Shown: positions 1-31,365 of the stretch, piece after piece | How the letters are laid out: every line of letters begins with the position of its first letter | Position numbering within the stretch: position 1 is the first letter of the stretch | Assembly (NCBI GenBank): GCA_964001155.1 | Contig: CAXFCD010000052.1 | Coordinates: 1 to 37,849 of the forward strand | DNA from: an uncultured bacterium | GTDB taxonomy: Bacteria; Fidelibacterota; Marinisomatia; Marinisomatales; UBA1611 | DNA: 37,849 nt | Direction of reading: 5' to 3' | The notes under the pieces: generated by a model | What the model saw: only the letters and a program-made list of their open reading frames with translations | The model's database searches: none | Told to the model about the DNA's origin: nothing | Position numbers and translations under genes: made by a program

Positions 1-2727
1 ATTGAAACGGATGGTATTGGTGGAATCCACCTTTGGTATGGTGATGTGAGCAGTTCTTTGGTCATCATGAATGATATGCAAGCCATGTCGAAAATTCCAA
101 TCATATTTGATGCTGATATGGAATATGGACTTCATCAGCGTTTTCCCTCGGGAACAGATTTACCTCCTTTCATGGCAATAGCAGCGACGGATAATCCTGA
201 TAATGCTTATTTAGCAGGGAAAATAGTTGCCGAAGAAGCCCGAGCAGCGGGAATTCAATGGAATTTATCTCCTGTAGTTGATGTCAATAATAACTCGGAA
301 AACCCAATCATAAATACGCGTTCATTTGGCGAACACCCCGATTTAGTCACTAATTTTGCAATTCCTTACATGAGAGGATTACAAGAAAATGGTGTATTGG
401 CAACAGCCAAACATTTTCCGGGACATGGTGATACTGAAACAGATTCTCATTCTTCTCTTGCCATGATTCCCAGTGATTCCGGTCGCCTATGGTCTGTGGA
501 AATTCCACCTTTTCAAGCAATGGCTGATGCCGGTGTAGATGCCATCATGGTGGCCCATGTCCATGCGCCGGATTATCAACCGGAATCAGATTCACCTGCT
601 TCAATAGACCCTTTTTGGATTCAATCTATTCTCAAACAAAAAATAGGATTTGATGGCGTTGTCATTACAGACGCAATGGGCATGGGTGGCGTGACAAAAA
701 ATTATTCCGACGCTTACGCCCTAATCGAAACAATCAATGCAGGCAGCGATGTAATTATTCAAAATTATAATTTGAAGGGTTCTATTGATGTTGTTGAAAA
801 AGCAGTCCACCAAGGTCTTATCCCAATCAATAGAATAAATGAATCTGCTTTGAAAATGCTTCAAATAAAAATGAAAGCCGGTTTAAATCAATCAAAATTC
901 ATCACTTCTGATTATGCACGACAAACCATTGGTAAAAAAGAAAATCGGACCGTGGCGAATCAAATGGCAACAGAAGCAATCACATGCGTAAAAAATGAAT
1001 TGAATTTGATTCCCTTGGTGAATAATGAGAAAAATCCTTTATTCGTGATTGATCTCTTTGATTCAAGGAATAACCATTCTCATTCATTAGTCTCCAAGGA
1101 TATTAAAAAATTAGGGACAGCGGTAAAGATAATACAGATTGATGAATCCGATTCAAGGAATTATTTGAATACTGTCTTAGAAGATATTCCCGTAAACAGT
1201 CCTATTCTCATTAATGCATTTGTAAACCCAAAAGCATGGAAGGATCAGATTAATTTATCAAATAAATTATCTGATTTTGTTCGTTCTCTTGTCAAAAAAA
1301 CTGATAATATTATTTTAGCAAGTTTAGGGACACCTTACCTCATTCGTGAATTTCCTGAAATCCCGGTTTACATTTGCGCTTATAAGGATAATACAGTCAT
1401 GCAAAATGCATTGGTCAAAGCACTTCTTGGAAAAACTAAAATATCAGGGAAACTACCTGTTTCAATTCCCGGTGTAGCAATGATTGGTGAAGGAATTGTA
1501 TTAGATAAACAAAGAACAGTAAAACAAAAAAAAGCACATAAACCGAGTACTGAAATTATTCAGGTATTGCCGACTGAACTTGGTGTTAAAACAAATAAAC
1601 TGAATCAGTTATTAGAAGAGTCAGTCCGAGATAGGGCTTGGCCCGGTGGTGTGCTATTAGCAGCCAAGAATGGTAAAATATTTTCGAAAAAAGCATTTGG
1701 ATTTCATACTTATGACCAAAACAGAGACGTCAGAACCAGTGATATCTTTGACTTGGCATCCATTACAAAAGTCATAGCCACCACATCATCTATCATGAAA
1801 TTGGTTGAAAGTGGCAAAGTTGATCTTGATGATCCTGTGGTAAAACATTTGCCTGAATTTTCCGGAAAACAAAAGGCAGCAGGTTCTCAAAAATCGATAA
1901 TAACAATCCGGCATTTATTAACCCACACAGGCGGATTGCCGTCATTCAAACAATACTACAAAATGAATGGATCTATTGAGTCGAAACTGGATAGTGTGTT
2001 TAATACAGCACCGGAATCTGGCTTGGGAGAGAAAACGATTTATTCGGATATAGGACTGATTGTATTGGGGAAATTGATTGAAAAAGTAAGCGATGTTACT
2101 TTGGACCAATTTGCAGATTCGCTCATTTTTCAGCCCCTAGGTATGACATCAACTTTTTTTAATCCGCCTCAAGAAAAGTTTCATCGCATCGTTCCCACAG
2201 AAATTTCTGAAGACTATCGAGCAGGATTGATTCAAGGGGAAGCCCATGATGAAAACGCTCACTGCATTGGGGGTGTTTCGGGTCATGCCGGTCTTTTTTC
2301 TACCGTTCGCGACTTGGCGCGATTTTCCCAAATGATGTTGAATAAAGGGCTCTACGGATGGACAAGAATATTTAGACAAGAAACAATCGAGTTATTTACA
2401 CAGCGCGCCAATATCATTGAGGGGAGTTCACGATGTTTGGGCTGGGACAGCCCGGATGGAGAAGCATCCGGCGGAATATATTTAAGTGATTCCAGTTATG
2501 GACATAATGGATTCACAGGCACCTCTTTGTGGATTGATCCTGAGAATCAGGTTATTGTTATTCTACTCACAAATGCAGTTCATCCCAATCGATCAGCAAA
2601 AAACCCAAAATATTTTGACTGGCGGCAACGTATCCATTCTGCGGTCTATGAATCTCTGGGATTTACAGAGCAAAACCCAAATTTGAAATTGAAATCCAGG
2701 TGGAAATATATTTCGGGTGACGAATAA
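1..2727 (+). CDS. nagZ: Fusion protein: GH3 beta-N-acetylhexosaminidase (NagZ-like) N-terminal part plus beta-lactamase-fold serine hydrolase (AmpH/EstB-like) C-terminal part; 5' end cut by the window edge
   Basis: Frame 1 is open from nt 1 (IETDGIGGIHLWYG... precedes the first ATG at 46). GH3 signature KHFPGHGDTETDSH is present. The C-terminal half has SxxK (DLASITKV), YSD and GHNGFTGTS motifs typical of class-C-like serine hydrolases. Confidence 0.85.
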   Translation: METDGIGGIHLWYGDVSSSLVIMNDMQAMSKIPIIFDADMEYGLHQRFPSGTDLPPFMAIAATDNPDNAYLAGKIVAEEARAAGIQWNLSPVVDVNNNSENPIINTRSFGEHPDLVTNFAIPYMRGLQENGVLATAKHFPGHGDTETDSHSSLAMIPSDSGRLWSVEIPPFQAMADAGVDAIMVAHVHAPDYQPESDSPASIDPFWIQSILKQKIGFDGVVITDAMGMGGVTKNYSDAYALIETINAGSDVIIQNYNLKGSIDVVEKAVHQGLIPINRINESALKMLQIKMKAGLNQSKFITSDYARQTIGKKENRTVANQMATEAITCVKNELNLIPLVNNEKNPLFVIDLFDSRNNHSHSLVSKDIKKLGTAVKIIQIDESDSRNYLNTVLEDIPVNSPILINAFVNPKAWKDQINLSNKLSDFVRSLVKKTDNIILASLGTPYLIREFPEIPVYICAYKDNTVMQNALVKALLGKTKISGKLPVSIPGVAMIGEGIVLDKQRTVKQKKAHKPSTEIIQVLPTELGVKTNKLNQLLEESVRDRAWPGGVLLAAKNGKIFSKKAFGFHTYDQNRDVRTSDIFDLASITKVIATTSSIMKLVESGKVDLDDPVVKHLPEFSGKQKAAGSQKSIITIRHLLTHTGGLPSFKQYYKMNGSIESKLDSVFNTAPESGLGEKTIYSDIGLIVLGKLIEKVSDVTLDQFADSLIFQPLGMTSTFFNPPQEKFHRIVPTEISEDYRAGLIQGEAHDENAHCIGGVSGHAGLFSTVRDLARFSQMMLNKGLYGWTRIFRQETIELFTQRANIIEGSSRCLGWDSPDGEASGGIYLSDSSYGHNGFTGTSLWIDPENQVIVILLTNAVHPNRSAKNPKYFDWRQRIHSAVYESLGFTEQNPNLKLKSRWKYISGDE

Positions 2728-2747
2728 AAGATTCTAATCATCATAAA

Positions 2748-4142
2748 ATGCACTGGATAGACACGTCAATCATTTTATTATTTTTAACTGGGCTCATAGG
2801 CTTTGGCTGGTGGCAGAGCAGGTTGAATCAAACCACCAAAGATTATTTTCTTGGTGGCAAAAACCTTCCTTGGGTTGTGGCAATGTTTTCCATCGTTGCA
2901 ACAGAAACATCAGTCCTTACTTTTATCAGCATTCCGGGAATCGCTTATCGCGGTAACTGGTTTTTTCTACAACTGGCTATCGGTTATATTTTAGGCAGAA
3001 TCCTGGTGAGTGTGTTTTTACTACCGCAATATTTTTCATCTGGCATTACATCTATCTATGAAGTTCTTGGTGAAAAATTTGGTCCTGAAATTCAAAAAGT
3101 TGCCTCAGGTGTTTTCCTCATTACGAGAATTCTTGCTGACGGGATTCGTTATCTTGCTACAGCAGTGATTGTCCAAGTTGTCACCGGATGGTCGCTTCCT
3201 GCAGCAGTTTTGGTCATTGGCGCTGTTACATTGGTTTATTCGTTGCTGGGTGGGATACGTACAATAGTCTGGATCGACAGTTTTCAATTTGTACTCTATT
3301 TAGCCGGTGGACTGATGTCTATTTATTATATAGTATATAATATGGATATGTCACTTGGGGTTGCGCTGGAACAATTAAGCACCGCCGGGAAAATGCAGTT
3401 CTTGAATTTCACAGGTAATATGTTTCACGAACCATATTTATTCTTTAGCGCTGTGATTGGAGGGATGTTTTTATCATTTTCCTCCCATGGGGCAGATTAT
3501 ATGATGGTTCAAAGAGTATTAGGTACGAAAGACTTAGAATCCGGTAAAAAGGCTATGATCGGCAGCGGTGTATTTGTTTTTCTCCAATTTGGTATTTTTT
3601 TATTGGCCGGTTCTTTGATCTATATTTACCTAGGCGGGATCGAATTAGAGAAAGATCGAGAATTTTCAACCTTTATTGTTGGCCATTTACCCATTGGTGT
3701 GAAAGGATTGCTCTTGGCGGGTATTTTATCAGCTGCAATGTCAACCTTGAGTTCTTCCATCAATTCCTTGGCTTCATCTACCATTACAGATTGGCTAAAA
3801 GGCGAAGCGGATATTAAAAAATCACAATTGGTGAGTGGGGTTTGGGCCATTGTCCTGATAGGAATTGCTCTCATTTTTGATGAAGGTGATTCCGCCATTG
3901 TTATCATGGGACTCCAAATTGCCTCATTTACCTATGGGGGTTTATTAGGACTTTTTTTATTGAGTAAACTCAATCAATCTTTTCACCCCACCAGTTTAAT
4001 TATTGGACTCATTTCCAGTTGCTTAATTGTCTTCTATTTAAAACAAATTGGGTTAGCATGGACTTGGTTCATCCTTGTTTCTGTTGCTGTGAATATCGGA
4101 ATGTGTTTTATCTCTGAGCGAGTAATTCGATTGGTAAAATAG
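2748..4142 (+). CDS. Sodium:solute symporter family (SSF) transporter
   Basis: 464 aa and polytopic. The N-terminal YFLGGKNLPWVVAMFSIVATETSVLTFISIPGIAY block is typical of SSF permeases. It lies 20 nt downstream of the NagZ fusion. Confidence 0.8.
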   Translation: MHWIDTSIILLFLTGLIGFGWWQSRLNQTTKDYFLGGKNLPWVVAMFSIVATETSVLTFISIPGIAYRGNWFFLQLAIGYILGRILVSVFLLPQYFSSGITSIYEVLGEKFGPEIQKVASGVFLITRILADGIRYLATAVIVQVVTGWSLPAAVLVIGAVTLVYSLLGGIRTIVWIDSFQFVLYLAGGLMSIYYIVYNMDMSLGVALEQLSTAGKMQFLNFTGNMFHEPYLFFSAVIGGMFLSFSSHGADYMMVQRVLGTKDLESGKKAMIGSGVFVFLQFGIFLLAGSLIYIYLGGIELEKDREFSTFIVGHLPIGVKGLLLAGILSAAMSTLSSSINSLASSTITDWLKGEADIKKSQLVSGVWAIVLIGIALIFDEGDSAIVIMGLQIASFTYGGLLGLFLLSKLNQSFHPTSLIIGLISSCLIVFYLKQIGLAWTWFILVSVAVNIGMCFISERVIRLVK

Positions 4143-4146
4143 GAAT

Positions 4147-5994
4147 TTATTTTACATAAATCAGTTTTTTGGAATCGATTATTTTATTATTCCAACTCAA
4201 TGTGCAAAAATAAATGCCGGAAGATACTTCTTGTCCGTCATCATTCATCCCATTCCAATCATAAGAGTAATATCCGGGATACAATTCGTCGTTCAGGATT
4301 GTTTTTACTTTTTGCCCAGTGAGGGACCAAATGACCAGTGCTACTTCTCTTTTATAGGATGTTACCACTAAAATATTGGTTTCATCCTTGAATGGGTTGG
4401 GATAGTTCTGGGTGAGATAAAAAGATTTTTGTAATTGATCTTCATTAGAGGTGAAAGATATAAGATTGGATTTATTTGATTCTTTCCAAAACCGGTCTGA
4501 AGTGGTTGAAAAGAAAAATTGGGTTTGCGATGTATCTAAGTTTGAAAAGTCTATGGGTATAACAAAAGAATCTTTCGAAAAATGGATATCAAAAATATTT
4601 GCAGACTCATTAGAAGCAGTTGGGCTTGTGGATTGGTAGGTTATGATCCAATTCGGTTCCTCCGTTTCTTTTGGGTAAACTTCCAATTGATATTCATTTT
4701 CTTCGCCGGATGACAAAACAATGGTGGGAGGGTCAATTGATCCTAGAGTGCCAATCGGATTTGGTTTTATTTTTGATTTCTCGATAAAAAATGTTTCCCC
4801 TGCTGTGGTGAAATAATTATGATCCCGCCAAGTTGCATAGCTGAAAAATTGGAAACCATCAACCCATCCTAATTCCCGGATGGCACTGACAATACTGTTG
4901 TGGTTATTCCAAACATTATTATCCGACAAAATATAGGATCCCGGTCCAACTGTGAAAGGCCGCCCAGATTCGATTCCCGGTTGAATAAATAATTCCCAAC
5001 AGTTTGGACAATCATTGGAAAGCATGTCTATAAATCCTTCAGAAGTCGTCCAATGATAACTCATGGGCATTATGTGATCTAAATAACCTTCATTATACCA
5101 AAGCGCTCCATCTTGGTAAACAGTGCCATACCCTTGCCACCCGGACCAATTGTATTTTCCTAAAACTGCAGCGCTCAACTTTACATGGGGCTTCACCGCT
5201 TGGATTGAATCATGGAGTGTGCTCACAAATTCTGTCACGCTCCATCGCCACCAGTCTTCCCAAGAACTGAATCCATTTGGGATACCGGCAGAATAGGGAT
5301 GTTCATAATCGTATAAATATCGTCCTGATGGATTTGAAGTCAATTCTTCAATTTCGTGTTGGGTTATGAATCCATCAATTCTATTCAATTGCTCTTGATG
5401 AGACGGTGAGTTTCGTTGAGAATTTGTGTGCTCATTCCAGCGGACATAATCTAAATGCAACCCATCAATATCATAATTTCGAACAATTTCCATAGCTACT
5501 TGCAAGGTGTAATTCCTAACTGCATCTAATCCGGGAGACAAAGATCGGTATGAGGCCATCGGTATTCCATTTTGATCGCGACAAATCCATTCCGGGTGCT
5601 CAGCTGCAGGGGCACCGTTATGTGTGCTTGAGGTTTGGAATACATTAAACCAGGCATGAAGCTCCAATCCACGGGCATGGGCTTCTTCAATGGCTAAAGC
5701 CAAAGGGTCATAACCGGGATATTGATATCCGGCATAATAACCCCAAGGTTCATAAGATGATTGGTAATAAGCAGTTCCACCCTGGCGAACCTGAAAAATA
5801 ACTGCATTCATATTGGCGTCTACATGGTCATCCATAATTTTTGCCACTCGATTCATATTTTGCACTGCTGGCTCATATCGGTTTATGTGATCCCAGGTGA
5901 TGACCCAGGTCGATCTAAATTCAGTATTTGATGGGGAAGCCGAGGAAAGGGTTAGTCCAAAGATAATAAAAATAAACGTGTATTTATAAAGCAT
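4147..5994 (-). CDS. Glycosyl hydrolase-like family 10 (GHL10/DUF187, YngK-like) TIM-barrel protein with a T9SS C-terminal sorting domain
   Basis: Signal peptide present. RSTWVITWDHI...NAVIFQVRQGGTAYYQSSYEPWG...YDPLALAIEEAHARGLELHAWFNVF...IDGLHLDYVRW matches the GHL10 pattern. The C-terminus has a NYPNPF... tail. Confidence 0.75.
   Translation of the reverse strand: MLYKYTFIFIIFGLTLSSASPSNTEFRSTWVITWDHINRYEPAVQNMNRVAKIMDDHVDANMNAVIFQVRQGGTAYYQSSYEPWGYYAGYQYPGYDPLALAIEEAHARGLELHAWFNVFQTSSTHNGAPAAEHPEWICRDQNGIPMASYRSLSPGLDAVRNYTLQVAMEIVRNYDIDGLHLDYVRWNEHTNSQRNSPSHQEQLNRIDGFITQHEIEELTSNPSGRYLYDYEHPYSAGIPNGFSSWEDWWRWSVTEFVSTLHDSIQAVKPHVKLSAAVLGKYNWSGWQGYGTVYQDGALWYNEGYLDHIMPMSYHWTTSEGFIDMLSNDCPNCWELFIQPGIESGRPFTVGPGSYILSDNNVWNNHNSIVSAIRELGWVDGFQFFSYATWRDHNYFTTAGETFFIEKSKIKPNPIGTLGSIDPPTIVLSSGEENEYQLEVYPKETEEPNWIITYQSTSPTASNESANIFDIHFSKDSFVIPIDFSNLDTSQTQFFFSTTSDRFWKESNKSNLISFTSNEDQLQKSFYLTQNYPNPFKDETNILVVTSYKREVALVIWSLTGQKVKTILNDELYPGYYSYDWNGMNDDGQEVSSGIYFCTLSWNNKIIDSKKLIYVK
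4150..4416 (-). other. T9SS (Por) type-A-like C-terminal sorting domain of the GHL10 protein
   Basis: LTQNYPNPFKDETNILV...VALVIWSLTGQKV...YSYDWNGMNDDGQEVSSGIYFCTL...KKLIYVK. Confidence 0.7.
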
Positions 5995-6022: not shown

Positions 6023-7405
6023 TTACTGTACACGAGACACTTTTATTTTGTATTTGTAATAAAATGTTCCACTGAATGTGAGTACAATTCCAACCAAAGA
6101 TGGGATAAAGGCTGTGATGAGAGTGATAATCAAAAATGAAAAATATAGAATAAGAACAACAATCATACTCCACGGATAAAGAATCGCTTTATAAGGTCGT
6201 TCTTTTGTAGGCCATTTTTTTCGGAGTACATAAATAGAACCAAACGTCAATAGATTAAAAACTGTGCTGGTTGCAGAAAAGAAATCAATAATTATTTCAT
6301 AAGTATTGGTTCCGCTCACACCGGATTGTAAATAGGTCGAAAGGACAGAAAAGACCAATAAAAAAGTTGCCCAGATTCCTTGTCCAAGTAAAGCATTATT
6401 TGGTGATTTATACACCGGATGTAACTCTTTAAACTTATCGAAGAATAGTCCATCTCTTGCCATAGCATGCCAAGTACGACCTTTGCATAAAATCTGTGTA
6501 CTGATATTCCCAAAAGCATTGACAGCGACTGCAATAGAAATCAAAATACCACCCGTAGCGCCCATCACGACTTTCATTGCTTCAGTCGCCACCCATTTAT
6601 TATCAATAATGGTTTGTACATCCAGTTGATATAAATATCCAAGATTAGCTCCGATGTAAAGAAGCGTAACGCCACCGATACCGAGGAAAAGCGATAGCGG
6701 AAGTGTTTTTTGCGGTTCTTTGACTTCTTCTGCCATATAAGTTGCGCCTTCCCATCCGCTGAAAGCAAAGAACGAATACCTAAGTGCAGCCCCAATGGCA
6801 AGTATCGTTTCCCAACCAAATGTCTCGGGCCAAAGTGGATTCACAAAATGATCGAAACTCCCTGTTGAAAAGGATGTCAACGTCATGCCGATTATGGCAC
6901 CCACAGCACAAACTTTAATTATACTGAAAATGACTTGGAATTTTCCGCTTAGACTAACGCCAAACAAGTTTATGCAGGTTAATCCCCAAATAGTTATTAA
7001 TGAAATGGCAAACGTTACTGGAAGGGAGAAAGGGGCACCCATCGATATTTCCCAAATGGCGTTCAAATATTCTGTAAATACCAGTGCAACTGCCACAATG
7101 GATGCAGTTTCTGAAACAAAAAACATGGCCCAACCACGAAGAAATGCGACATAGGGTCCATAAGCTTCTTTCAAGAAAACATAGGGTCCGCCTGATTTTG
7201 GCAGCATTGCGGTTAGTTCCGCATATATGACCGCTCCAAAAATAGTAATGATTCCACCAATGACCCATACCAAACCAAACAAAGAGGTACAACCCACCAA
7301 TGCCATTATAGGTGCAGGAGTCCGAAAGATCCCTGAGCCGATAATTCTGCTAATCACAATGGCAACAGACTCTTTTAGCCCTAGGTCTCTTTTATATTCA
7401 CTCAT
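6023..7405 (-). CDS. APC-family amino acid permease
   Basis: 460 aa with about 12 TM segments. N-terminal LGLKESVAIVISRIIGSGIFRTPA and FAFSGWE motifs are typical of amino acid/polyamine/organocation transporters. Confidence 0.85.
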   Translation of the reverse strand: MSEYKRDLGLKESVAIVISRIIGSGIFRTPAPIMALVGCTSLFGLVWVIGGIITIFGAVIYAELTAMLPKSGGPYVFLKEAYGPYVAFLRGWAMFFVSETASIVAVALVFTEYLNAIWEISMGAPFSLPVTFAISLITIWGLTCINLFGVSLSGKFQVIFSIIKVCAVGAIIGMTLTSFSTGSFDHFVNPLWPETFGWETILAIGAALRYSFFAFSGWEGATYMAEEVKEPQKTLPLSLFLGIGGVTLLYIGANLGYLYQLDVQTIIDNKWVATEAMKVVMGATGGILISIAVAVNAFGNISTQILCKGRTWHAMARDGLFFDKFKELHPVYKSPNNALLGQGIWATFLLVFSVLSTYLQSGVSGTNTYEIIIDFFSATSTVFNLLTFGSIYVLRKKWPTKERPYKAILYPWSMIVVLILYFSFLIITLITAFIPSLVGIVLTFSGTFYYKYKIKVSRVQ

Positions 7406-19554: not shown

Positions 19555-19578
19555 ACGATATCTTAGTTAGGTAAAATT

Positions 19579-23001: not shown

Positions 23002-23023
23002 GAATATTTTATTGACTAGAATA

Positions 23024-24076
23024 ATGAAAAAAATTATCCATAAGACCAATATAGCGGTGTTGCTTATTTTTATTTTATTCCAATTATGTTGGGTATATGG
23101 CCAATTGGACGATTCACAAACAATAACAAAATCGGGAACAACAGCAGCACAATTTTTGAAAATAGGTATAGGGGCTCGTGGAACGGCGATGGGCGGTGCC
23201 TTTGCAGCGATCGATGGTGATATAAGTTCCATGTACTGGAATGCTGCGGGTATTGCAAGCATGAACAGGTTAGAGACAATGTTTGTTGATGGCGATTGGC
23301 TTGCAGGTGTTAGACTCCAATATCTTGGCTTTTCAATTCCAATACATAGAATTGGTGTTCTGGGATTAAGTGTCACAAATCTTTCAGTTCCAGAAGATAA
23401 AGTACGTACAATTTCTGAACCAGAGGGTACAGGTGAATATTGGGGTGCTCGGGATTTAGCTGCGAATCTAAGTTTTGCCAGAAAATTATCCGATAAATTC
23501 AGTATTGGAGGAAATATAAAATATATTCAACAAACAATTTGGCATGCCAGTGCCAGTACATATGCTGCGGATTTAGGAGCGCTATTTGAAACACCTTTTA
23601 ACGGAATTAGACTAGGTGCTTCTATTAATAATTACGGCGGTAAAATGAAGTTAGAGGGTAGAGACCAAAAAATCAGTGTAGATCCAGATCCTTTAAATCA
23701 GGGTAATGTAGAGTTCATTAATGCGAATCTGGAAACAGACCAATTTCCAATTCCTTTAATTTTCCGAGTTGGGCTATCGGGTGAATTAATTAATAAACAA
23801 AATTTAAGATTATCCTACGCTATTGATGCGTTGCACCCTAATGATAATTCTGAGTATGTGAATTTGGGGATGGAGACAGTTTTTAATAACCTTGTGTCAA
23901 TTCGTGCAGGATATCCTTCATTATACAAGGAAGAATCGATTGAAGGTCCAACCTTTGGAGCAGGGTTGAATTATAGGATTTGGCGTACAGCAACAATATT
24001 GAAAGTCGATTATTCCTTTGCAGACTTTGGTCCATTAGGAGATGTGAAAAGAATATCTATAGGATTTAATTTTTAA
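23024..24076 (+). CDS. PorV/PorQ-family (UPF0164/FadL-like) T9SS-associated outer-membrane beta-barrel
   Basis: Family signature TTAAQFLKIGIGARGTAMGGAFAAIDGDISSMYWNAAGIA follows a signal peptide. The protein is beta-rich and ends ...ISIGFNF. Start chosen at the ATG at 23024 (MKKIIHK...), 22 nt after the upstream stop, rather than the ORF-track start at 22967. Confidence 0.75.
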   Translation: MKKIIHKTNIAVLLIFILFQLCWVYGQLDDSQTITKSGTTAAQFLKIGIGARGTAMGGAFAAIDGDISSMYWNAAGIASMNRLETMFVDGDWLAGVRLQYLGFSIPIHRIGVLGLSVTNLSVPEDKVRTISEPEGTGEYWGARDLAANLSFARKLSDKFSIGGNIKYIQQTIWHASASTYAADLGALFETPFNGIRLGASINNYGGKMKLEGRDQKISVDPDPLNQGNVEFINANLETDQFPIPLIFRVGLSGELINKQNLRLSYAIDALHPNDNSEYVNLGMETVFNNLVSIRAGYPSLYKEESIEGPTFGAGLNYRIWRTATILKVDYSFADFGPLGDVKRISIGFNF

Positions 24077-24098: not shown

Positions 24099-25373
24099 TT
24101 GAAACGAATTCTCACTTTTCAATTTCTTATTTTTTTTAACTTATCCTTTGCACAAATCGGTGAGTTAGGCCCAGTCCTAGATCAATTTCCTCATCTAATA
24201 GCACGAGACAGTTTATCCTTCATTATTTCTGAAGGTAGATCATCACCGAGTTTTGACTCTTTAGAAGGTGGTGCCATTGAAATCGAAGGGGATTTTGTAA
24301 CAGGAGTAGAGTTTGTTCTTTTTAATGAATCAGGAACACAGAAAAAAGTCCAAGGGAAAATTTTCAGAAACGAATTACTTGGCACTACAATTGCAACATT
24401 TAGAACTCTTGAAAATGAATTTATTGACCAATTTTCTTTTAAAATTATTTCTACAGAGTTAATTGAAGTAAAATCCGTCATCGGATTTCTTCCTGACTCT
24501 GAAATTAGGGTAGGTGCACCCAAGTCGTTAATTCCCATTGTTGGAGATGTTCCAAAACCCACTATTGTTTCCCGGGAAGAATGGGGGGCTCAACCTTCAA
24601 AATACTCCTATAGCAATCATCCCTATATTGACAAATTAACTCTCCATCATGCAGCTTGTTGCAGTGCAAATAACCTTGAAGAAGGTAAAAGCCAAGTTTT
24701 ATGGATCCAGGATTTTCACCAAAATGGCCGTGGTTGGAATGACATTGGCTATCATTTTCTTGTAGATCGTGCGGGAAATATTTACCAAGGTCGGCCGGAA
24801 ACAGTGATAGGTGCTCACGTTGGCGGCGCGAATACCGGGAATATTGGTGTCTGTTTATTGGGGTGTTACCATCCGCCTGAAACTAATTGTTTTGAGTTTA
24901 TGAGTGATGAAAGTAAAGATGCCATCGTTCGTTTATTCGGTTGGTTATCAGACGCATATGAACAAAATCCTTCAATCCTATTGGGTCACAGAGATTATTT
25001 TGGAACGACTGCCTGCCCTGGCGATAATGTTTGGTATAGATTACCCCTATTAAGGATTGATATAACAGACTATATAACATCAATGGAGTTACCACCTATT
25101 TATTTATCTCAACCCGCATATCCAAACCCATTCTCTAACCAGACAACCCTTAGTTTTGAATTAACGGAAAAAGAGGATGTAATCATTGAAATCTATGATC
25201 TTCTAGGTAGAAAAGTAAATTCGATAGGTGCAACAGAAATAGAACCGGGAATAACAAATTTTATCTGGAATGGAACAAATAAATCAGGTAAAAAACTTGG
25301 GAATGGGATGTATTTTGCTTTACCCGTTAATCACCCAGAATTAGAATTGATAAAACTGGTAATGGTCAAATAA
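24099..25373 (+). CDS. Secreted N-acetylmuramoyl-L-alanine amidase (PGRP/Amidase_2 domain) with an unknown N-terminal domain and a T9SS C-terminal sorting domain
   Basis: SREEWGAQP...LTLHHAAC...WNDIGYHFLVDRAGNIYQGRP...GAHVGGANTGNIGVCLLG...LLGHRDY..TTACPGD is the PGRP/T7-lysozyme-type Zn amidase pattern. Signal peptide present. The tail is AYPNPFSNQTTLSFEL... Confidence 0.85.
   Translation: MKRILTFQFLIFFNLSFAQIGELGPVLDQFPHLIARDSLSFIISEGRSSPSFDSLEGGAIEIEGDFVTGVEFVLFNESGTQKKVQGKIFRNELLGTTIATFRTLENEFIDQFSFKIISTELIEVKSVIGFLPDSEIRVGAPKSLIPIVGDVPKPTIVSREEWGAQPSKYSYSNHPYIDKLTLHHAACCSANNLEEGKSQVLWIQDFHQNGRGWNDIGYHFLVDRAGNIYQGRPETVIGAHVGGANTGNIGVCLLGCYHPPETNCFEFMSDESKDAIVRLFGWLSDAYEQNPSILLGHRDYFGTTACPGDNVWYRLPLLRIDITDYITSMELPPIYLSQPAYPNPFSNQTTLSFELTEKEDVIIEIYDLLGRKVNSIGATEIEPGITNFIWNGTNKSGKKLGNGMYFALPVNHPELELIKLVMVK
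25104..25370 (+). other. T9SS type-A C-terminal sorting domain of the PGRP-type amidase
   Basis: LSQPAYPNPFSNQTTLSFELTEKEDVIIEIYDLLGRKV...FIWNGTNKSGKKLGNGMYFAL...IKLVMVK. Confidence 0.75.
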
Positions 25374-25462: not shown

Positions 25463-26701
25463 TTAATAAGATTCTAAAAACTTCAATGGATGTGTATTAT
25501 TTAAAAGTTCGTGATACAACTTATCGCTGCCCCACAATCGATTTAGGTGCTGTTCTTTGAAGGTAACTTCACTTGAATACAATTGATATATAGTAAAAAG
25601 AGTTATAACGCCCGTATCCACACTTTTAAATGTATTTCGATTTATAACAATTATTTCAATGCCAAAACATTTTTCTTTTTCAAATTTTGGGTGCTTTGAC
25701 ATGCCGGGGATGGATAGAGGCATAAAAGAGATCGGTTGAAAAACCACGCCCGGAAGTTTGTATTTATTCAATTTTTGGGACAAAAGTTTCCCGTCAATCC
25801 AGGGCGCGCCAATTTGTTTAAATGGGTTTTGGGTTCCCCGGCCTTCACTGATATTTGTTCCTTCAATCAAGCACATTCCCGGGTATATAAAGGCAGTTTC
25901 TAAATCAGAGATATTTGGGGATGGTTTTACCCAAGGCAAATCTGTTTCATCATACCAAAGACTTGGATTCCAGCCTTCAATTTCGATGACTTCTACTCTT
26001 GGGATAGGGGAAATCCATTTATTCTCAATTATTTTTTGGGCTAAATCGCCTACCGTTCCACCATACCGGATTGGGATTGGGTAATATCCAACAAAAGTTT
26101 GAAAATCCATTTCCAAAATCGGGCCTTCCACAATATCACCACGGATTGGATTAGGACGATTCAATACCAAGACGGGAATATCTAACTCCCCGGCAGCTTC
26201 CATGACCAAACCTAAGGTGGTGATATAGGTATAAAAACGGGCGCCAATATCCTGGATATCATAAACAATCAAATCAATCCCTGCCAGCATTTCAGGTTTG
26301 GGTTTTCGAATTTTTCCGTACAAACTAATAACTTGAGGAAAATCAGTATCCTCCTTTGAGTAATGGATTTTTTCTCCTGCATCTGCTTCACCAAATAATC
26401 CGTGTTCAGGAGAAAAAATAATTTTTAGATCTACATCTTTAATTTCCATGAGACGTTTGTAATTTGGTGTCCCTTTTTTATCAACACCGGTGTGGTTGGT
26501 CACTAATGCAATTGATTTATCTTGAATTAATCCCAATTTAGAATCCAGTAGAATATCTAATCCTGTTTTGATATTAATTTTCTCCACAGGGATTTTAGGA
26601 TTAAGCTTTTGTTTTTCCATTTGTTCCTGATGGATGGATGGATGATCTCCCTGAGAAAAAAGGGTACTGATAAAAATAAAAACAGTGATACGATATATCA
26701 T
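25463..26701 (-). CDS. namZ: DUF1343 protein, exo-beta-N-acetylmuramidase NamZ family
   Basis: GLDILLDSKLGLIQDKSIALVTNHTGV...IFSPEHGLFGEADAGE...ISLYG...IDLIVYDIQDIGARFYTYITTLGLVMEAAGE..IPVLVLNRPNPIRGDIVEGPIL...FVGYYPIPIRYGGTVGDLA is the DUF1343/YbbC pattern. Signal peptide present. Confidence 0.85.
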   Translation of the reverse strand: MIYRITVFIFISTLFSQGDHPSIHQEQMEKQKLNPKIPVEKINIKTGLDILLDSKLGLIQDKSIALVTNHTGVDKKGTPNYKRLMEIKDVDLKIIFSPEHGLFGEADAGEKIHYSKEDTDFPQVISLYGKIRKPKPEMLAGIDLIVYDIQDIGARFYTYITTLGLVMEAAGELDIPVLVLNRPNPIRGDIVEGPILEMDFQTFVGYYPIPIRYGGTVGDLAQKIIENKWISPIPRVEVIEIEGWNPSLWYDETDLPWVKPSPNISDLETAFIYPGMCLIEGTNISEGRGTQNPFKQIGAPWIDGKLLSQKLNKYKLPGVVFQPISFMPLSIPGMSKHPKFEKEKCFGIEIIVINRNTFKSVDTGVITLFTIYQLYSSEVTFKEQHLNRLWGSDKLYHELLNNTHPLKFLESY

Positions 26702-29148
26702 TTTAACAGTGTTACTTTTTTGGATTTAGTTTCAAAACCGTTACTGACGGAAATGATAAATAATCCTGATGAAACCGGTTGACCATTTTGATCTAATCCA
26801 TTCCACGTGAAGTATGATTTAAAATTGGATGGTATGTGAGTTGTTTGTTTTATTGGCCTACCAAGAATATCATGAATAGAAATCAAAATTTGTTCATTTG
26901 GTGTGGAAGAAAATGTCATTGTAAAGGATGTATTAGAAGGATTTGGATATAATTTATATATGGATATTGATTCGGGTGCCGGGAATGAATTATTCTCATC
27001 CATTTTAAGTTGAGATTCATATAAAGACATAATCTGTTCCATTATTTCATTTCTCTGTGATTCCGGATATATTGCCTCAAATCCAACAGCTAAATAAACT
27101 AATCCACCTATTTGATTATTTGTCCCAAATGGACCAATATAGTCTATTCCCATCCCGCCTTGGCTGGCATAATTCACACCCACATATTTCACATTTACGG
27201 AAGCACCGCCCACCGGTTGAATGCCATCGGGCCAATCTACGTCATAAGTTCCCTGGCTGCCATCATCAAAAGTGATAGTTGGTATACTTTCAAAAATAGA
27301 GTTGCTGACGCCATACCCGCTATAAACATTATTCCCTGCAGCATCTGATAAATAATCCGCTTTTAAATAATTTGTATAAAACTGGTTATCGGAATTGCTT
27401 CCTTGTCCAGCAAGGTCATACCCAATCTCTGATCCTGAAACAAATAAAAACCCGCCACCTTCTAAAAATGATTTTACCAGATTTTGTTCAGTGGTTGTAA
27501 ACGTGCTGGTTGCTGTCCCTTCTTCGCCCAAAATCCAATCAATGTATTTATAATCTGATAGTAAGACAGTACCATTCATTACAGCTTCATTGGATGCTGA
27601 ATTAAATGCATACCCCGCATGATGAAGAGAACTACCATGTTGGCGAATGAAATCGAAGGTGTTATTTGTTCCCGTAATACGATCAAATCCGTTTACGATT
27701 AAGCATGATACAGGTTCGTTGGTTGGGGTAATGCCTAACATTTCAGTCGTTTCACTTTCACCAAAAAGATTCATCGCATTAATAGACAAAAAATAGGTTT
27801 CACCTTGGTTCAAATTTTCTATGAAAATAGGATTTTCAGAGAAAATTCCAAGTGTATCAGATTCGCCACTTGGCTCCAAATAATTTCTGAACACTGTATA
27901 TTCTTCAGCATCAAGTGCACCTCCAAAGTCAATTCGGATAGACCCGTTTCCTATATTTGTTATAGATAAATTTGTAGGCTGAGTGGGTGGGGCACCACCA
28001 CTGAATTTTGCATAAAGCAATTCCCATAATTCCGAATTTGAACCATCATAACCCAAAGCCCACATACCAATTCCTTTTAAATCATGATAAAGTGCAAAAT
28101 CGTATTTTAGAGATAAGGACAAACTGTCGTCGTACCATCCTTGATTCCAATTATTATCCTGGTAATAATACCAAGGCGTTTGGGATGACTCATGCCATTG
28201 TTTTCCATAGGATTGAGCTAAGGGTTCCATTTCTGAATATGTTTTAGCGTCACCGGTTCCGGTTGTAGCAGCTCCCGGTACATAGGAAGTCGCCGGCCAT
28301 TCATATCCATAATATGGAATACCCAAAATTAATTTATCCGCCTGAAAATTTGTTTTCTCTAAATAGTCAAAAATGGTCCAGGTCAAAGTATATCCTGGTC
28401 CTGTTAAAGGGGAAACCGGCCCCGTTGTTGAACTACCACTCCAATGGTATCCATATCCCATGATAAATAAACCATCACTAATTGTAGCCAATGCATTATA
28501 ATCCCAGGCATCATTCCAATCAACCGCTGGCATTGCCAATGTCACCTGCGAGCCAGGTATTTGGGTATGAAATGCTGATGTGAGGTCTGTAATGAATGTT
28601 ACCATATTTTCTTTTTGTGAGGCGGGGAAGGATTCAAAATCAATATTCACTCCATCCGCATTTCCAGCTTGGACTTGTTCAATCAAATTATCAATCAACG
28701 TCTGTCGGTAAGTAGGATTACTGAGGAGCGTTTCCAAACCACTATTGCTGAATAAAGTGGCGCACAATACAACATTTGTCCCATGGGCATGCGCTTCATT
28801 GATTAGACTCGCAACGGGCCATCCATGGAGGTCGTCTAAGGTGCCATTTGGATTAACTTCGGCACTGAAGTAGGCTAAGGTGGAGATCAGATCAAAATTA
28901 TAGTTTTGCCATGAGGTCCCCATCCAATAAGGATGGTACCCAAAAACTTCCCGAGTTGGTTCCCGTTGTCGATCTAATTTAGGTCTTATGGGTCCACTAT
29001 TATCTAATTCTTGAAAAATGTAATTTTGGTTGTAATAGTCTAATTGGGTTTGATGGATACTCGGAATATTCTGGCCAACTAAACCAGTCACCAGGCCGAT
29101 TATTAAAGGATAAAATCTAAACTTCACAGCCTGAAAAAATATCTTCAA
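26698..29148 (-). CDS. Secreted GH18 glycoside hydrolase with an FN3 domain, an uncharacterised ~230-aa domain and a T9SS C-terminal sorting domain
   Basis: Catalytic block ADGVNIDFE: the D-x-E is retained, but the second Asp of DxxDxDxE is Asn. The YHPYWM...NYNFDLISTLAYFSAEVNPNGTL start resembles the spore-cortex-type GH18 subgroup (needs a CDD check). The tail is LYPNPSNTSFTMTF...VTLLK. An alternative GTG start lies at 29127. Confidence 0.8.
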   Translation of the reverse strand: MKIFFQAVKFRFYPLIIGLVTGLVGQNIPSIHQTQLDYYNQNYIFQELDNSGPIRPKLDRQREPTREVFGYHPYWMGTSWQNYNFDLISTLAYFSAEVNPNGTLDDLHGWPVASLINEAHAHGTNVVLCATLFSNSGLETLLSNPTYRQTLIDNLIEQVQAGNADGVNIDFESFPASQKENMVTFITDLTSAFHTQIPGSQVTLAMPAVDWNDAWDYNALATISDGLFIMGYGYHWSGSSTTGPVSPLTGPGYTLTWTIFDYLEKTNFQADKLILGIPYYGYEWPATSYVPGAATTGTGDAKTYSEMEPLAQSYGKQWHESSQTPWYYYQDNNWNQGWYDDSLSLSLKYDFALYHDLKGIGMWALGYDGSNSELWELLYAKFSGGAPPTQPTNLSITNIGNGSIRIDFGGALDAEEYTVFRNYLEPSGESDTLGIFSENPIFIENLNQGETYFLSINAMNLFGESETTEMLGITPTNEPVSCLIVNGFDRITGTNNTFDFIRQHGSSLHHAGYAFNSASNEAVMNGTVLLSDYKYIDWILGEEGTATSTFTTTEQNLVKSFLEGGGFLFVSGSEIGYDLAGQGSNSDNQFYTNYLKADYLSDAAGNNVYSGYGVSNSIFESIPTITFDDGSQGTYDVDWPDGIQPVGGASVNVKYVGVNYASQGGMGIDYIGPFGTNNQIGGLVYLAVGFEAIYPESQRNEIMEQIMSLYESQLKMDENNSFPAPESISIYKLYPNPSNTSFTMTFSSTPNEQILISIHDILGRPIKQTTHIPSNFKSYFTWNGLDQNGQPVSSGLFIISVSNGFETKSKKVTLLK
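26701..26952 (-). other. T9SS type-A-like C-terminal sorting domain of the GH18 protein
   Basis: LYPNPSNTSFTMTFSSTPNEQILISIHDILGRPI...FTWNGLDQNGQPVSSGLFIISV...KKVTLLK. Confidence 0.7.
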
Positions 29149-30373
29149 TTGATTCCCTGCGGCGGATTAAAGTTGGGTTTTCGCCATCAAGAAGCACCTC
29201 AGCAGGTTTGGGGCGTGTGCAAAATTGATGGGACATGGTGTAACAATATGCCCCCGCATCCATAACAGCAATTAGGTCGCCTTCTTCCACATATGGAAAC
29301 TCCCGATCTACAGCAATGCGATCGGTATTTTCACAAATTCGTCCTGTAATGTCAACAGTCTGATCAATTGGAGCATCTGGCTCGCCTACTTTATACATTC
29401 TGTGATGTGCACCATAAAGTGCAGGCCTCATAAGCGTTTCCATCCCTGCATCCACACCGATATATTTCCTATAACTATCTTTAATACCTGTCACGCGAGT
29501 TAGAAGTATTCCCGTATCACCAACCACTGATTTCCCCGGTTCTATCCAGAGCGACGGTTTTGATTCATTCTGTTGTTCAAAATAAGAATTGAAGTTCTTT
29601 CCTACTTGTGAAAATACGGCATCAAAGTCCAAGGTAGAGTCCTCATCAGTGTAAGGAATTCCATATCCGCCGCCTAGACTGACATACTCCATATGAATAT
29701 TTAATTCATCCTTAAGTTGTTCGACTGTTCCCAAAATTGATTTAATCAGTTCAGGGTAATAATCAGGGTCTAATACGCCCGAACCTGTCATACATTGAAT
29801 ACCGAATTTTTTTATGCCTGCTTCTTTTGCCAGACTGTAAGCACTGACGATGTCATAGTGAGGGACACCAAATTTTGAATTTTCTCCACCAGTAACAATT
29901 TGAGAAAAGGCGCCTTTACCAAATCCTGGATTCAACCGAAATGAAATATCTTCCGGAAGTCCAATTTTATTTAATCTGTCAAAGGATGTAATATCATCCA
30001 AATTGATATGGGCTCCGTGATCATAGGCGTACTTTAGATCTTCCGGGGATTCATAGTTGCCGGTGTAGATACATTCATTTCCAAGGATACCACTTTTCTC
30101 AGCAATATAGATTTCACCAGGGCTTGCACAATCACCACCAATAGATGGGACCGCTGTTTTCAATTCTTTAATTAAATGAGGATTATTATTCGCTTTTATC
30201 GTATAACAAATATGATAGGATGAAAAATTGTTTTTTAGAGCATGATTCAGTTTTTCAATATTGTGAATCAAACGCTCTTTCGAGTATATGTAAAGAGGTG
30301 TTCCAAATTGGCTTGCCAATGCATCAAATAAAGCTTTGTTTTTCAACAGGTTGAAGAGCGGATGTTTTTCCAT
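29117..30373 (-). CDS. lysA: Diaminopimelate decarboxylase (PLP-dependent Orn/DAP/Arg decarboxylase family 2)
   Basis: YTIKANNNP (PLP Lys), SLGGGYGIPY, EPGKSVVG, GRICENTD and DAGAYCYTMS boxes are present. Length is 418 aa. The 3' end overlaps the GH18 start by 11-32 nt. Confidence 0.8.
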   Translation of the reverse strand: MEKHPLFNLLKNKALFDALASQFGTPLYIYSKERLIHNIEKLNHALKNNFSSYHICYTIKANNNPHLIKELKTAVPSIGGDCASPGEIYIAEKSGILGNECIYTGNYESPEDLKYAYDHGAHINLDDITSFDRLNKIGLPEDISFRLNPGFGKGAFSQIVTGGENSKFGVPHYDIVSAYSLAKEAGIKKFGIQCMTGSGVLDPDYYPELIKSILGTVEQLKDELNIHMEYVSLGGGYGIPYTDEDSTLDFDAVFSQVGKNFNSYFEQQNESKPSLWIEPGKSVVGDTGILLTRVTGIKDSYRKYIGVDAGMETLMRPALYGAHHRMYKVGEPDAPIDQTVDITGRICENTDRIAVDREFPYVEEGDLIAVMDAGAYCYTMSHQFCTRPKPAEVLLDGENPTLIRRRESIEDIFSGCEV

Positions 30374-30525
30374 TTTTTAAAGATTTTAAGTCCATTTCGT
30401 TTTATTGATATCGCGTGATATATAGTTTTAAAATTATAGACATTTCATTAATATTTCTAAATGAATAATAGTAATATAATTCATTAATTTTGTTGAGTAA
30501 ATGTTATCAATTTATTCCAATTAAA

Positions 30526-31365
30526 ATGAACAGATTTAAATTTCTAATCCTAATTTTTTTTTACTTTAATGGATGTTCGAATAAAGCAGATCCATTTGTC
30601 TGGATCAATACATTGCCAGAACCTTGGACACTTTCTGAAGCGGAGTTTGAATCTTTTTTACCCCAATTTCAGGAAAAATTTCCTAATTATCACGACCGTA
30701 TTAAAGCATTGAATTTGTGGCGCGTAGGAACGCCCTACGGATTATTTTGTCTTGGAGAAGAATCGGGTCAAGATACGGATCCTATCATCCGGAATGATTC
30801 ATCCGATTGTACTGTGCATGTGCTCACCACTTTGGCCTTTGCTGAAAGTTTTTCATGGCAACATGCTCGGGATGTCATGGTGGACATCCATTATAAAATG
30901 GATAAGGAAGGGAGAAAGAAACCTACCTTTGAATCCAGATGGCACTTTACGTCGGATCGACTTCTTCACCATCCACAAACACAACAAATAACACAAACCA
31001 TTGCAAAGGATTCAGAATTAGAAACTATTCAAATTGAGTTGAATAGAAAGGAAAGTGGTGACGAATTTTTAAAGTTGGATTGGACATCCCAAGAAACAAT
31101 TCAATTTTTACCGATAGAGAAAGTTAAAAAGAATCATTTAGACAAATTACCAACTGTCTGCGGAGTTGCTTTTGTAAAGCGGAGTTATTTTAAAATGGGA
31201 ATCGTGATTGCCCATGAGGGATATTTTATTGATCAATCCAATCTAATTCATGCATCATCAGAATTTGGAGAAACGGTGAATGTGGATTTTATGAATTATT
31301 TATATAAGGAAGATGGAACGCCGAGATTTGACGGCGTTATGTTTTATTCAATCCATCCAAGTTGA
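30526..31365 (+). CDS. DUF1460 / AmiA-like NlpC/P60-fold N-acetylmuramoyl-L-alanine amidase family lipoprotein
   Basis: Lipobox LILIFFYFNGC. GTPYGLFCLGEE...DSSDCTVHVLTTLAFAE (candidate catalytic Cys), RWHFTSDRL and IAHEGYFID..NLIHASSEFGETV resemble the DUF1460 pattern as I recall it. Start chosen at the ATG at 30526. Confidence 0.6.
   Translation: MNRFKFLILIFFYFNGCSNKADPFVWINTLPEPWTLSEAEFESFLPQFQEKFPNYHDRIKALNLWRVGTPYGLFCLGEESGQDTDPIIRNDSSDCTVHVLTTLAFAESFSWQHARDVMVDIHYKMDKEGRKKPTFESRWHFTSDRLLHHPQTQQITQTIAKDSELETIQIELNRKESGDEFLKLDWTSQETIQFLPIEKVKKNHLDKLPTVCGVAFVKRSYFKMGIVIAHEGYFIDQSNLIHASSEFGETVNVDFMNYLYKEDGTPRFDGVMFYSIHPS

Follow-up and report, generated by a model that had tools for sequence, protein, structure and literature searches.

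Several bacteria salvage peptidoglycan (PG) with enzymes encoded in clusters, and such clusters exist in Bacillus subtilis, Tannerella forsythia and Bacteroides. Fidelibacter multiformis IA91, the sole cultured member of Marine Group A (SAR406, or Marinimicrobia), relies on exogenous muropeptides for its wall as well as for carbon and energy (Katayama et al. 2024; PMC11652737). Here, we describe a locus from an uncultured member of the same phylum (Fidelibacterota; Marinisomatia; Marinisomatales; UBA1611). The window, meaning the whole stretch of DNA analysed, spans 37,849 nucleotides (positions 1 to 37,849 of contig CAXFCD010000052.1, assembly GCA_964001155.1). About 25 genes predicted to serve the breakdown, import and consumption of bacterial cell walls appear to form one conserved cluster in this ocean bacterium, and SAR406, an abundant group, probably feeds on the walls of other bacteria. 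Neither the existence of PG-salvage clusters elsewhere nor the muropeptide dependence of Marine Group A, published in 2024, is new. In the searchable literature, a scope that leaves the gene list of Katayama et al. 2024 outside, no description was found of this locus, of murein hydrolases exported by the type IX secretion system (T9SS) and linked to NamZ and LysA, or of conservation in pelagic SAR406.

In B. subtilis, the murQ-murR-murP-amiE-nagZ-namZ operon groups the secreted, exo-acting enzymes NagZ, AmiE (which has a beta-lactamase fold) and NamZ, which jointly digest intact PG from its non-reducing ends (PMC8054146). Similarly, NamZ and a protein with NagZ and beta-lactamase-fold domains both carry export signals here, placing them in the periplasm. 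However, the two domains are fused in this locus, and MurQ, MurP (a phosphotransferase system protein) and MurR were not found in the window, where KpsF (329 bits with TIGR00393, cut-off 204) is the one protein with a SIS domain. The locus also adds T9SS-exported endo-hydrolases, LdcA, PBP4, LysA, transporters of the SSF and APC families and about 15 more genes.

The PG-salvage cluster of T. forsythia (Tanf_08345-08385) encodes AmpG, LytB, NamZ1, MurT, MurK and MurQ (bioRxiv 10.1101/2021.12.02.470905). Tannerella is likewise a salvager of exogenous PG within the Fibrobacterota-Chlorobiota-Bacteroidota (FCB) group, and processes peptide-free glycans in the periplasm. Both loci have NamZ and a sugar kinase, which in this case is putative, and Tannerella LytB, a putative lytic transglycosylase, may correspond to a SpoIID/LytB-domain gene upstream of the window. 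In contrast, AmpG, MurT and MurQ were not found here, whereas the exported endo-hydrolases, stem-peptide enzymes and LysA of this locus are all missing from the Tannerella cluster as described. The Tannerella amidase for exogenous PG has yet to be identified; candidates here are the Amidase_2 protein, the AmiA-like protein and possibly the beta-lactamase-fold domain. Given the B. subtilis and Tannerella clusters, the statement of an initial annotation of this DNA that recycling genes are usually scattered was too strong.

Scattering does hold for E. coli, where the Gram-negative AmpG-NagZ-AmpD-LdcA-AnmK-MurQ-Mpl recycling pathway, also known from Pseudomonas, is not encoded in one place. LdcA and a cytoplasmic NagZ are shared with that pathway, AnmK occurs in related loci, and the role of the anhydro-muropeptide amidase is plausibly filled by the AmiA-like protein. 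On the other hand, Pfam and NCBIfam scans of the proteins of the window and its upstream extension found no AmpG, AnmK or Mpl, and, unlike that cytoplasmic pathway, the locus includes an extracellular layer and ends in catabolism through LysA.

A further point of comparison is the SusC/SusD type of polysaccharide utilisation locus (PUL) in Bacteroidota, in which depolymerases at the surface or beyond it are encoded together with exo-enzymes of the periplasm, importers of the inner membrane and enzymes for catabolism in the cytoplasm, as they are here. The likeness ends there. No protein of the window or upstream extension matches a SusD family in Pfam, the TonB-dependent receptor has no SusC-specific match and belongs to a different conserved module, and there is no linked regulator (hybrid two-component system, extracytoplasmic-function sigma/anti-sigma pair or SusR); a Pfam scan found no regulator domain at all between positions 1 and 31,365. 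Because both the SusD-like gene and the regulator are lacking, the locus falls outside the definition of a PUL, and the earlier description of it as PUL-like is an analogy only. Its implicit Bacteroidota framing also had to be abandoned, as the window comes from Marinimicrobia/SAR406 and both the best 80 related loci and the names of DacB homologs agree with this. Exact matches of its proteins put the window on contigs from Tara Oceans and other marine metagenomes.

IA91 cannot make N-acetylmuramic acid (MurNAc), D-Ala, D-Glu, diaminopimelate (DAP) or lysine (PMC11652737), and its inability to make DAP and lysine fits the presence of LysA within the locus. Unlike the locus described here, which is pelagic, IA91 is an anaerobic subsurface organism, reported to take up ready-made muropeptides released by growing bacteria. 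The exported depolymerising layer in the pelagic locus implies attack on the polymeric wall.

Every window protein was scanned with Pfam and NCBIfam models, sequence searches against the PDB complemented these scans, and N-termini were judged by eye for signal peptides and lipoboxes (Table 1). The open reading frame (ORF) coordinates of the initial annotation match the ORF map, and its calls of GH3, NamZ, GH18, GHL10, Amidase_2, DUF1460/AmiA-like, PBP4, LdcA, C26-like glutamine amidotransferase (GATase) and LysA were reproduced with Pfam, NCBIfam or the PDB. NamZ, AmiA-like, LdcA, PBP4, Amidase_2 and M23 are PG-specific families. An Rfam scan of the window returned no families.

Table 1. Features of the window and its upstream extension on parent contig L086. 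The last column gives the loci, among 80 related ones, in which the gene lies within 10 kb of DacB; these counts are lower bounds.
Feature	Position	Strand	Evidence or remark	Loci
NagZ-type GH3 beta-N-acetylglucosaminidase fused to beta-lactamase-fold (PBP4B/AmiE-like) domain	1..2727	+	Pfam GH3 257 bits, Beta-lactamase 217 bits	24/80
SSF sodium:solute symporter	2748..4142	+	Pfam SSF 83.6 bits	28/80
GHL10 glycosidase, signal peptide and T9SS sorting domain	4147..5994	-	Pfam GHL10 (PF02638) 131.6 bits, Por_Secre_tail; TIGR04183 30 bits	
APC-family amino-acid permease	6023..7405	-	Pfam AA_permease_2 175 bits	24/80
Gate-domain membrane protein, SpmB-like	7483..8031	-	Pfam Gate 50 bits	35/80
Gate-domain membrane protein, SpmA-like	8028..8624	-	Pfam Gate 54 bits	37/80
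LdcA LD-carboxypeptidase (S66), no signal peptide, hence cytoplasmic	8636..9565	-	Pfam S66 N 138 bits, C 102 bits	48/80
PBP4/DacB DD-carboxy/endopeptidase (S13), lipoprotein signal (AFSC lipobox)	9558..10961	-	Pfam S13 296 bits; TIGR00666 239 bits, cut-off 108	
Class I GATase/C26-type hydrolase, stand-alone, cytoplasmic	10948..11622	-	Pfam GATase 62 bits, Peptidase_C26 30 bits	28/80
M23-type metallo-endopeptidase (N-terminal), ~490-residue unassigned region, T9SS sorting domain	11632..13755	-	Pfam M23 24.7 bits; Por_Secre_tail 30 bits	14/80
hyp396, 396-residue secreted all-beta protein, signal peptide, no sorting domain	13759..14949	-	no family	
Intrinsic-terminator-like hairpin, strong	14962..14992	-	14 pairs, then T run; parts FG-GAP gene from nine-gene operon	
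FG-GAP repeat protein, T9SS sorting domain	15007..16743	-	Pfam FG-GAP_3; TIGR04183 33 bits	
TonB-dependent receptor (CarboxypepD_reg, Plug, barrel)	16897..19554	+	Pfam	
1140-residue secreted multi-beta-sandwich protein, sorting-domain-like C-terminus	19579..23001	+	no family	
PorV/PorQ-family outer-membrane barrel	22967..24076	+	NF033709 203.6 bits, cut-off 90; likely start ATG ~23024	
PGRP/Amidase_2 N-acetylmuramoyl-L-alanine amidase, signal peptide and T9SS sorting domain	24099..25373	+	Pfam Amidase_2 59.8 bits	
NamZ (GH171) exo-beta-N-acetylmuramidase, signal peptide, periplasmic	25463..26701	-	Pfam NamZ_N 246.5 bits, NamZ_C 139.6 bits	44/80
GH18 glycosidase, YdhD/SleL (spore-cortex PG) type, T9SS sorting domain	26698..29148	-	Pfam GH18 120 bits	39/80
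LysA diaminopimelate decarboxylase	29117..30373	-	TIGR01048 354.6 bits, cut-off 297.9	36/80
AmiA-like (DUF1460, NlpC/P60-fold) muramoyl-L-alanine amidase, lipoprotein signal (FNGC lipobox)	30490..31365	+	Pfam AmiA-like 76.7 bits	22/80
Small ORF, up to 129 residues	31408..31797	+	no family	
PAP2-family phosphatase	32266..32976	+		
BCP/PrxQ-type peroxiredoxin	34733..35203	+		
GH3 NagZ, cytoplasmic	upstream			
Kinase-like protein, 326 residues	upstream		only weak ROK/sugar-kinase matches	
SpoIID/LytB-domain protein	upstream		TIGR02669, 172 bits	
Second SSF symporter, 610 residues	upstream			
NagX-like membrane acetyltransferase	upstream			

Gene spacing groups these features into transcription units. 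Nine genes (hyp396-M23-GATase-DacB-LdcA-GateA-GateB-APC-GHL10) are separated by gaps of -14 to 77 nt and form one operon. The LysA, GH18 and NamZ genes overlap successively, the NagZ fusion and SSF genes are 20 nt apart, and the genes for the TonB-dependent receptor, 1140-residue protein, PorV-like barrel and Amidase_2 protein are spaced by at most 24 nt. The overlapping starts and stops reported earlier are real. A scan for sigma-70 promoters gave results no better than those for shuffled sequence. The locus also runs at least 6 kb beyond the start of the window, where parent contig L086 (1-6938) carries a divergent operon. This operon is followed by a metallo-beta-lactamase-fold (MBL) gene, and the same gene directly follows DacB in compact versions of the cluster. 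At the other end, the genes beyond 31.4 kb are unrelated housekeeping genes (cytochrome c, PAP2, KpsF, TrhA, peroxiredoxin, a cyclase and a MenA-like protein).

Conservation was assessed in the best 80 loci from a DacB-anchored scan with one genome per species. Window proteins were searched against these loci with tblastn, a comparison of ORFs followed, and neighbours were counted within 10 kb of DacB; many of the loci lie on truncated contigs, so that per-gene counts are lower bounds. All 80 come from metagenome-assembled genomes (MAGs) or single-amplified genomes labelled Marinimicrobia, Neomarinimicrobiota or Fidelibacterota (SAR406), bar a few evidently mis-binned contigs. Three typical Marinimicrobia clusters (L014, L016 and L072) were deposited as Chloroflexota, Winogradskyella and Methanobacteriota MAGs, and are probably binning errors.

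Among the 35 loci whose flanks were complete over 10 kb, the median count was nine homologs of window locus genes (range 5-12) out of 16 neighbouring ORFs. NamZ adjoins GH18 in 37 of 44 cases, and LysA leads a conserved LysA-GH18-NamZ(-DacB) operon in about 25 loci. LdcA is the gene directly 3' of DacB in 49 loci, and the GATase is directly 5' of it in 28. Gene order, by contrast, varies by lineage, so that the gene neighbourhood is kept as a set rather than as a sequence. The commonest compact form consists of LysA-GH18-NamZ-DacB-MBL(-GH20), with SSF-AmiA-NagZ fusion on the opposite strand, followed by NagZ-kinase-like-SpoIID; the order NagZ fusion, AmiA, SSF is seen in about 20 compact loci. 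Relative to this compact form, the window is both expanded and rearranged.

Related clusters also carry genes with no counterpart in the window. These include a GH20 hexosaminidase, an M15 D-Ala-D-Ala dipeptidase lipoprotein, an NlpC/P60 protein with SH3 domain, an MpaA-like M14 peptidase, an M20 peptidase, a ROK kinase, NagB, a second LdcA paralog and, in some loci, a GntR/UTRA regulator. AnmK is found in four loci (L073, L074, L079 and L083) and, in related loci, lies beside a DUF819 membrane protein. It is difficult to see how different lineages would have recruited different PG enzymes to the same neighbourhood without selection for a common function, and recurrence in 80 related genomes places the concentration of PG genes beyond chance. 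The conservation argument thus rests on a set kept despite rearrangement and on accessory genes of PG families. A further argument, that flanking genes are never conserved, was dropped, as cytochrome c, KpsF, the peroxiredoxin, the cyclase and a PAS-UbiA protein are syntenic in some closer lineages.

Taken together, the locus is likely a cluster of pelagic Marinimicrobia for the depolymerisation, uptake and catabolism of PG (murein), organised in three cellular layers. The earlier proposal of a single locus devoted to PG is borne out by placement with hidden Markov models (HMMs) and the PDB, by conservation of the gene set despite shuffling, by conserved sorting domains and by the physiology of the cultured relative. 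In the proposed order of action, T9SS-exported enzymes would work first, outside the cell or at its surface. Here, M23 would cut cross-links, the PGRP-type amidase would strip stem peptides, and GH18 (probably an endo-N-acetylglucosaminidase) and the Cwp19-like GHL10 enzyme would cut glycan strands. In the periplasm, NamZ, the NagZ fusion, the AmiA-like protein and DacB would then yield N-acetylglucosamine (GlcNAc), MurNAc or anhydro-MurNAc and short peptides, in a manner resembling the sequential digestion by NagZ, AmiE and NamZ in B. subtilis. Products would be imported across the inner membrane by two SSF symporters, the APC permease, the SpmA/B-like pair and the NagX-like protein, and processed in the cytoplasm by LdcA, the C26-type amidase, the second NagZ and the kinase-like protein. 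Finally, LysA would convert released meso-DAP to lysine. Products from turnover of the cell's own wall would be recycled by these periplasmic and cytoplasmic enzymes as well.

The transporter specificities in this scheme are predictions. The SSF symporter is a candidate importer of released amino sugars. The SpmB-like gene overlaps the upstream stop by 4 nt at its start, and its homologs are 64-91% identical. Of the four transport systems counted initially, the SSF, APC and Gate (SpmAB-like) systems were reproduced, whereas the TonB-dependent receptor, although real, is part of a separate non-PG module.

Several observations weigh against a PG-consuming locus. The window has no MurQ, AnmK, AmpG, Mpl or regulator, which leaves its route of amino-sugar catabolism incomplete. 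The TonB-dependent receptor is not tied to PG, which leaves the passage of fragments across the outer membrane unexplained. The M23 domain scores under the Pfam cut-off of 28.7 bits, GH18 is largely a chitinase family, and DogH, a GHL10 member, is reportedly active on starch. Furthermore, DacB served as the anchor for all 80 loci and these stem from a single phylum, so that their conservation partly reflects shared ancestry.

The location of the enzymes bears on whether the locus might instead be housekeeping. The TIGR04183 type A sorting domain scores 28.3-33.3 bits (cut-off 23) on GHL10, M23, Amidase_2 and GH18, which agrees with the earlier report of T9SS tails on four hydrolases, and the FG-GAP protein is a fifth carrier; PNPF and GxY motifs align among the domains. 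All five proteins combine this domain with a signal peptide. Signal peptides or lipoboxes alone are found on NamZ, DacB, the AmiA-like protein, the NagZ fusion and hyp396, and LdcA, the GATase, LysA and the upstream NagZ have no export signal. When homologs were searched with an HMM made from the five sorting domains of the window, the domain was detected in 29/29 GH18, 5/5 GHL10, 13/14 M23 and 5/5 Amidase_2 proteins; it was not found on homologs of NamZ (0/43), DacB, AmiA or the NagZ fusion. As sorting domains are kept across their homologs, export of the endo-acting enzymes is a conserved feature. Such sorting domains are clearly in use in Marinimicrobia, an FCB-group phylum; of the T9SS machinery (SprA/Sov, PorK-N, PorU and PorV), the window contains a PorV/PorQ-family gene only. 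Since the producer's own wall lies beneath the outer membrane, exported enzymes would act only on foreign or detrital wall.

This topology makes it unlikely that the locus merely recycles and remodels the cell's own wall, with the exported hydrolases doing something else or attacking the cell's own shed fragments. LdcA, cytoplasmic NagZ, the AmiA-like protein and PBP4 (and AnmK in related loci) are indeed classical self-recycling enzymes, and PBP4 normally works on its own sacculus. However, four hydrolases have conserved sorting domains, in GH18 without exception, and an enzyme beyond the outer membrane cannot reach the sacculus of its producer. In addition, none of the 80 loci contains genes that return products to synthesis (mpl, mur), the presence of LysA and an amino-acid permease speaks for consumption, and the cultured relative uses exogenous muropeptides (PMC11652737).

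The peptidases and amidases of the locus allow for another explanation, namely that the exported hydrolases are bacteriolytic weapons for antagonism or predation and that the recycling genes clean up afterwards. The M23 call from the initial annotation stands with a reservation about its score, as the protein has both zinc motifs (HxxxD and HxH), which align with an M23 enzyme in the PDB (6.6e-4) and are kept in 12 of 14 homologs. Always directly 5' of the M23 gene lies hyp396, for which Pfam, NCBIfam and PDB searches gave no match and only three homologs were found. The pair occurs in about 12 loci, and the periplasmic hyp396 is fast-evolving, with 21-45% identity between lineages; its AlphaFold2 (AF2) model (predicted local distance difference test, pLDDT, 48) was too poor for a structure search. 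The position of hyp396 beside an exported M23 enzyme would suit an immunity or chaperone protein. Amidase_2 matches PGRPs in the PDB at up to 1.8e-24, T7 lysozyme included. It appears to retain the zinc ligands His/His/Cys, a GYHF motif and the Tyr of catalytic members, as judged by eye against T7 lysozyme; the alignment covers the first His only.

Secretion of M23 proteases, amidases and muramidase-like enzymes is typical of lytic attack, and the place of hyp396 is one typical of immunity proteins. Even so, a primary role as weapons seems quite unlikely, although it overlaps with PG consumption and does not exclude it. Ocean bacteria are mostly Gram-negative, and their walls are shielded from external enzymes; the linkage of LysA, GH18 and NamZ, together with the transporters and catabolic enzymes, fits nutrition better, and the locus contains no toxin-delivery machinery.

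The position of LysA at the head of the operon that is best conserved suggests that meso-DAP scavenged from walls may be a source of lysine, a reading that fits since the cultured member of the phylum can make neither compound. The C26-type GATase has the motifs GICFGHQ and HIE and is proposed to be a gamma-glutamyl (stem-peptide) amidase. The AmiA-like protein probably starts at position 30526 and matches PDB 2im9 at 1.5e-7. In L020, the locus with the gene order most like that of the window, neighbouring genes are 76-91% identical to their window counterparts and DacB just 53%; judging from these identities, DacB is either faster-evolving or has been replaced.

The glycan-strand enzymes raise the question of substrate, murein or chitin. 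The NagZ fusion is cut at its 5' end by the window; on the parent contig, the full protein has 975 residues and a lipoprotein signal (LFAGC). Its best NCBIfam matches are PBP4B and beta-N-acetylhexosaminidase, and its second-best PDB match is B. subtilis YbbD/NagZ (5.8e-62). In the beta-lactamase-fold half, S-I-T-K, Y-S-D and H-N-G correspond to the SxxK, YSD and HNG motifs. This half was originally counted among the stem-peptide peptidases. The fold is confirmed; the domain may serve either as such a peptidase or as an AmiE-like MurNAc-L-Ala amidase.

E. coli DigH/YddW, also of the GHL10 family, cuts denuded glycan strands. The sole PDB relative of the GHL10 protein described here is Cwp19 (5oq2, 4.2e-26), a PG lytic transglycosylase (PMC6016235), with an alignment limited to residues 22-183, and the protein is thus a predicted exported glycan-strand-cleaving enzyme.

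GH18 ranks closest to B. subtilis YdhD (1.6e-25), then to 4wiw, a Desulfitobacterium GH18 (3e-21), and to YaaH (4e-17), with the first chitinase at 9e-14. YdhD and SleL act on spore-cortex PG, their PDB names being 'sporulation-specific glycosylase' and 'cortical-lytic enzyme'. The GH18 motif DGVNIDFE is without the middle Asp of the chitinase motif DxxDxDxE, as are those of YdhD, 4wiw and YaaH (GGVTIDFE, DGVVIDFE and RDIHFDFE). By these sequence comparisons, GH18 groups with the PG enzymes YdhD and YaaH/SleL, not with chitinases, and is probably an endo-N-acetylglucosaminidase. A check for chitin-specific placement of GH18 and GHL10 therefore pointed to murein, as the nearest solved relatives of both are PG enzymes and the GH18 motif is not that of a chitinase. 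Between its catalytic and sorting domains lies an unassigned region of about 360 residues (residues ~369-732), and BLASTP revealed no middle domain shared by the GH18 and M23 proteins.

Earlier SAR406 genomics scored GH18 as chitin and had PG represented solely by GH23, GH103 and CBM50 (Thrash et al. 2017; PMC5596340). A locus for chitin or other GlcNAc polymers, built on GH18, GH3 and GHL10 (with GH20, NagX and NagB in relatives) and with peptidases and amidases as bystanders, could draw on that scoring, on the prevalence of chitinases in GH18 and on the use of NagZ, GH20, NagX-like proteins and NagB in chitin catabolism as well, but is very improbable given the placement and motif of GH18, its adjacency to the MurNAc-specific NamZ and the presence of at least eight families without a chitin role (NamZ, AmiA-like, Amidase_2, LdcA, PBP4, M23, LysA and SpoIID).

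If the locus does serve PG consumption, it may have wider ecological relevance. A considerable part of the dissolved and particulate organic matter in the sea consists of PG and its D-amino acids, which degrade slowly, and little is known of the organisms that remove them. SAR406 occurs in abundance across the ocean interior, and none of its pelagic members has been isolated. By combining exported wall-degrading enzymes, uptake and catabolism in a compact and conserved form, the locus offers a concrete, testable niche for this group, and ties the muropeptide dependence of its sole cultured relative to open-ocean lineages. The locus also supplies candidates for the exogenous-wall amidase missing in Tannerella-type salvage, for sodium-coupled importers of MurNAc and GlcNAc, for a C26-type stem-peptide amidase and for secreted enzymes of the GH18 and GHL10 families that act on murein. 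A cultivation strategy is suggested as well, namely to supply sacculi or muropeptides.

More tentatively, pelagic SAR406, which ranks among the most abundant uncultured groups of the dark ocean, might be specialised consumers of bacterial wall necromass, using a T9SS-exported set that would represent a murein counterpart of the PUL and whose secreted, SleL-like GH18 enzymes would form a new class of endo-glucosaminidases. Lysine, and perhaps D-amino acids and MurNAc, might then be obtained through the LysA-GH18-NamZ operon, and the dependence on wall material seen in the anaerobic isolate could be ancestral and have persisted in the open ocean as active depolymerisation. This nutritional scenario is possible, and we hold it with clearly less confidence than the assignment of the locus to PG.

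Embedded between the PG genes is a four-gene module encoding the FG-GAP protein, the TonB-dependent receptor, the 1140-residue protein and the PorV-like barrel. The receptor matches generic or heme-type models only. Identities of the 1140-residue protein across Marinimicrobia and KSB1 are 59-86%, with about 60% between phyla, and its Asp-rich repeats resemble DxDxDG and appear to be calcium-binding. It has no sequence match in the PDB, and its AF2 model (pLDDT 67.6) gave only beta-sandwich matches in a Foldseek search of the PDB, with template modelling (TM) scores of at most 0.15. The module (15007-24076 in the window) is also present in L088 (2704-14537) and L089. In KSB1, it lies among housekeeping genes with no PG genes nearby. 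The receptor was considered as an import gate for PG fragments and rejected as evidence, as the module occurs in KSB1 without PG genes. On this distribution and these identities, the module is independent, strongly constrained, and often but not always located beside the PG cluster.

Three genes downstream of the AmiA-like gene also deserve mention. The small ORF, for which an internal Met may be the true start, has homologs with 61-85% identity in 19 related loci, usually beside AmiA or the cluster. The gene for the PAP2-family phosphatase, which is near the locus in the window, lies divergently beside LysA in about 17 related compact clusters; it may serve lipid-carrier recycling or reflect mere synteny. 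The peroxiredoxin is full-length and not an AhpC fragment, with an in-frame TGA (34883-34885) at the site of the peroxidatic Cys (FPKADTPG-TGA-VKQACGFRD) and a weak hairpin only after the TGA. Because this TGA is retained in all eight homologous genes of other Marinimicrobia loci, the protein is very likely a selenocysteine peroxiredoxin.

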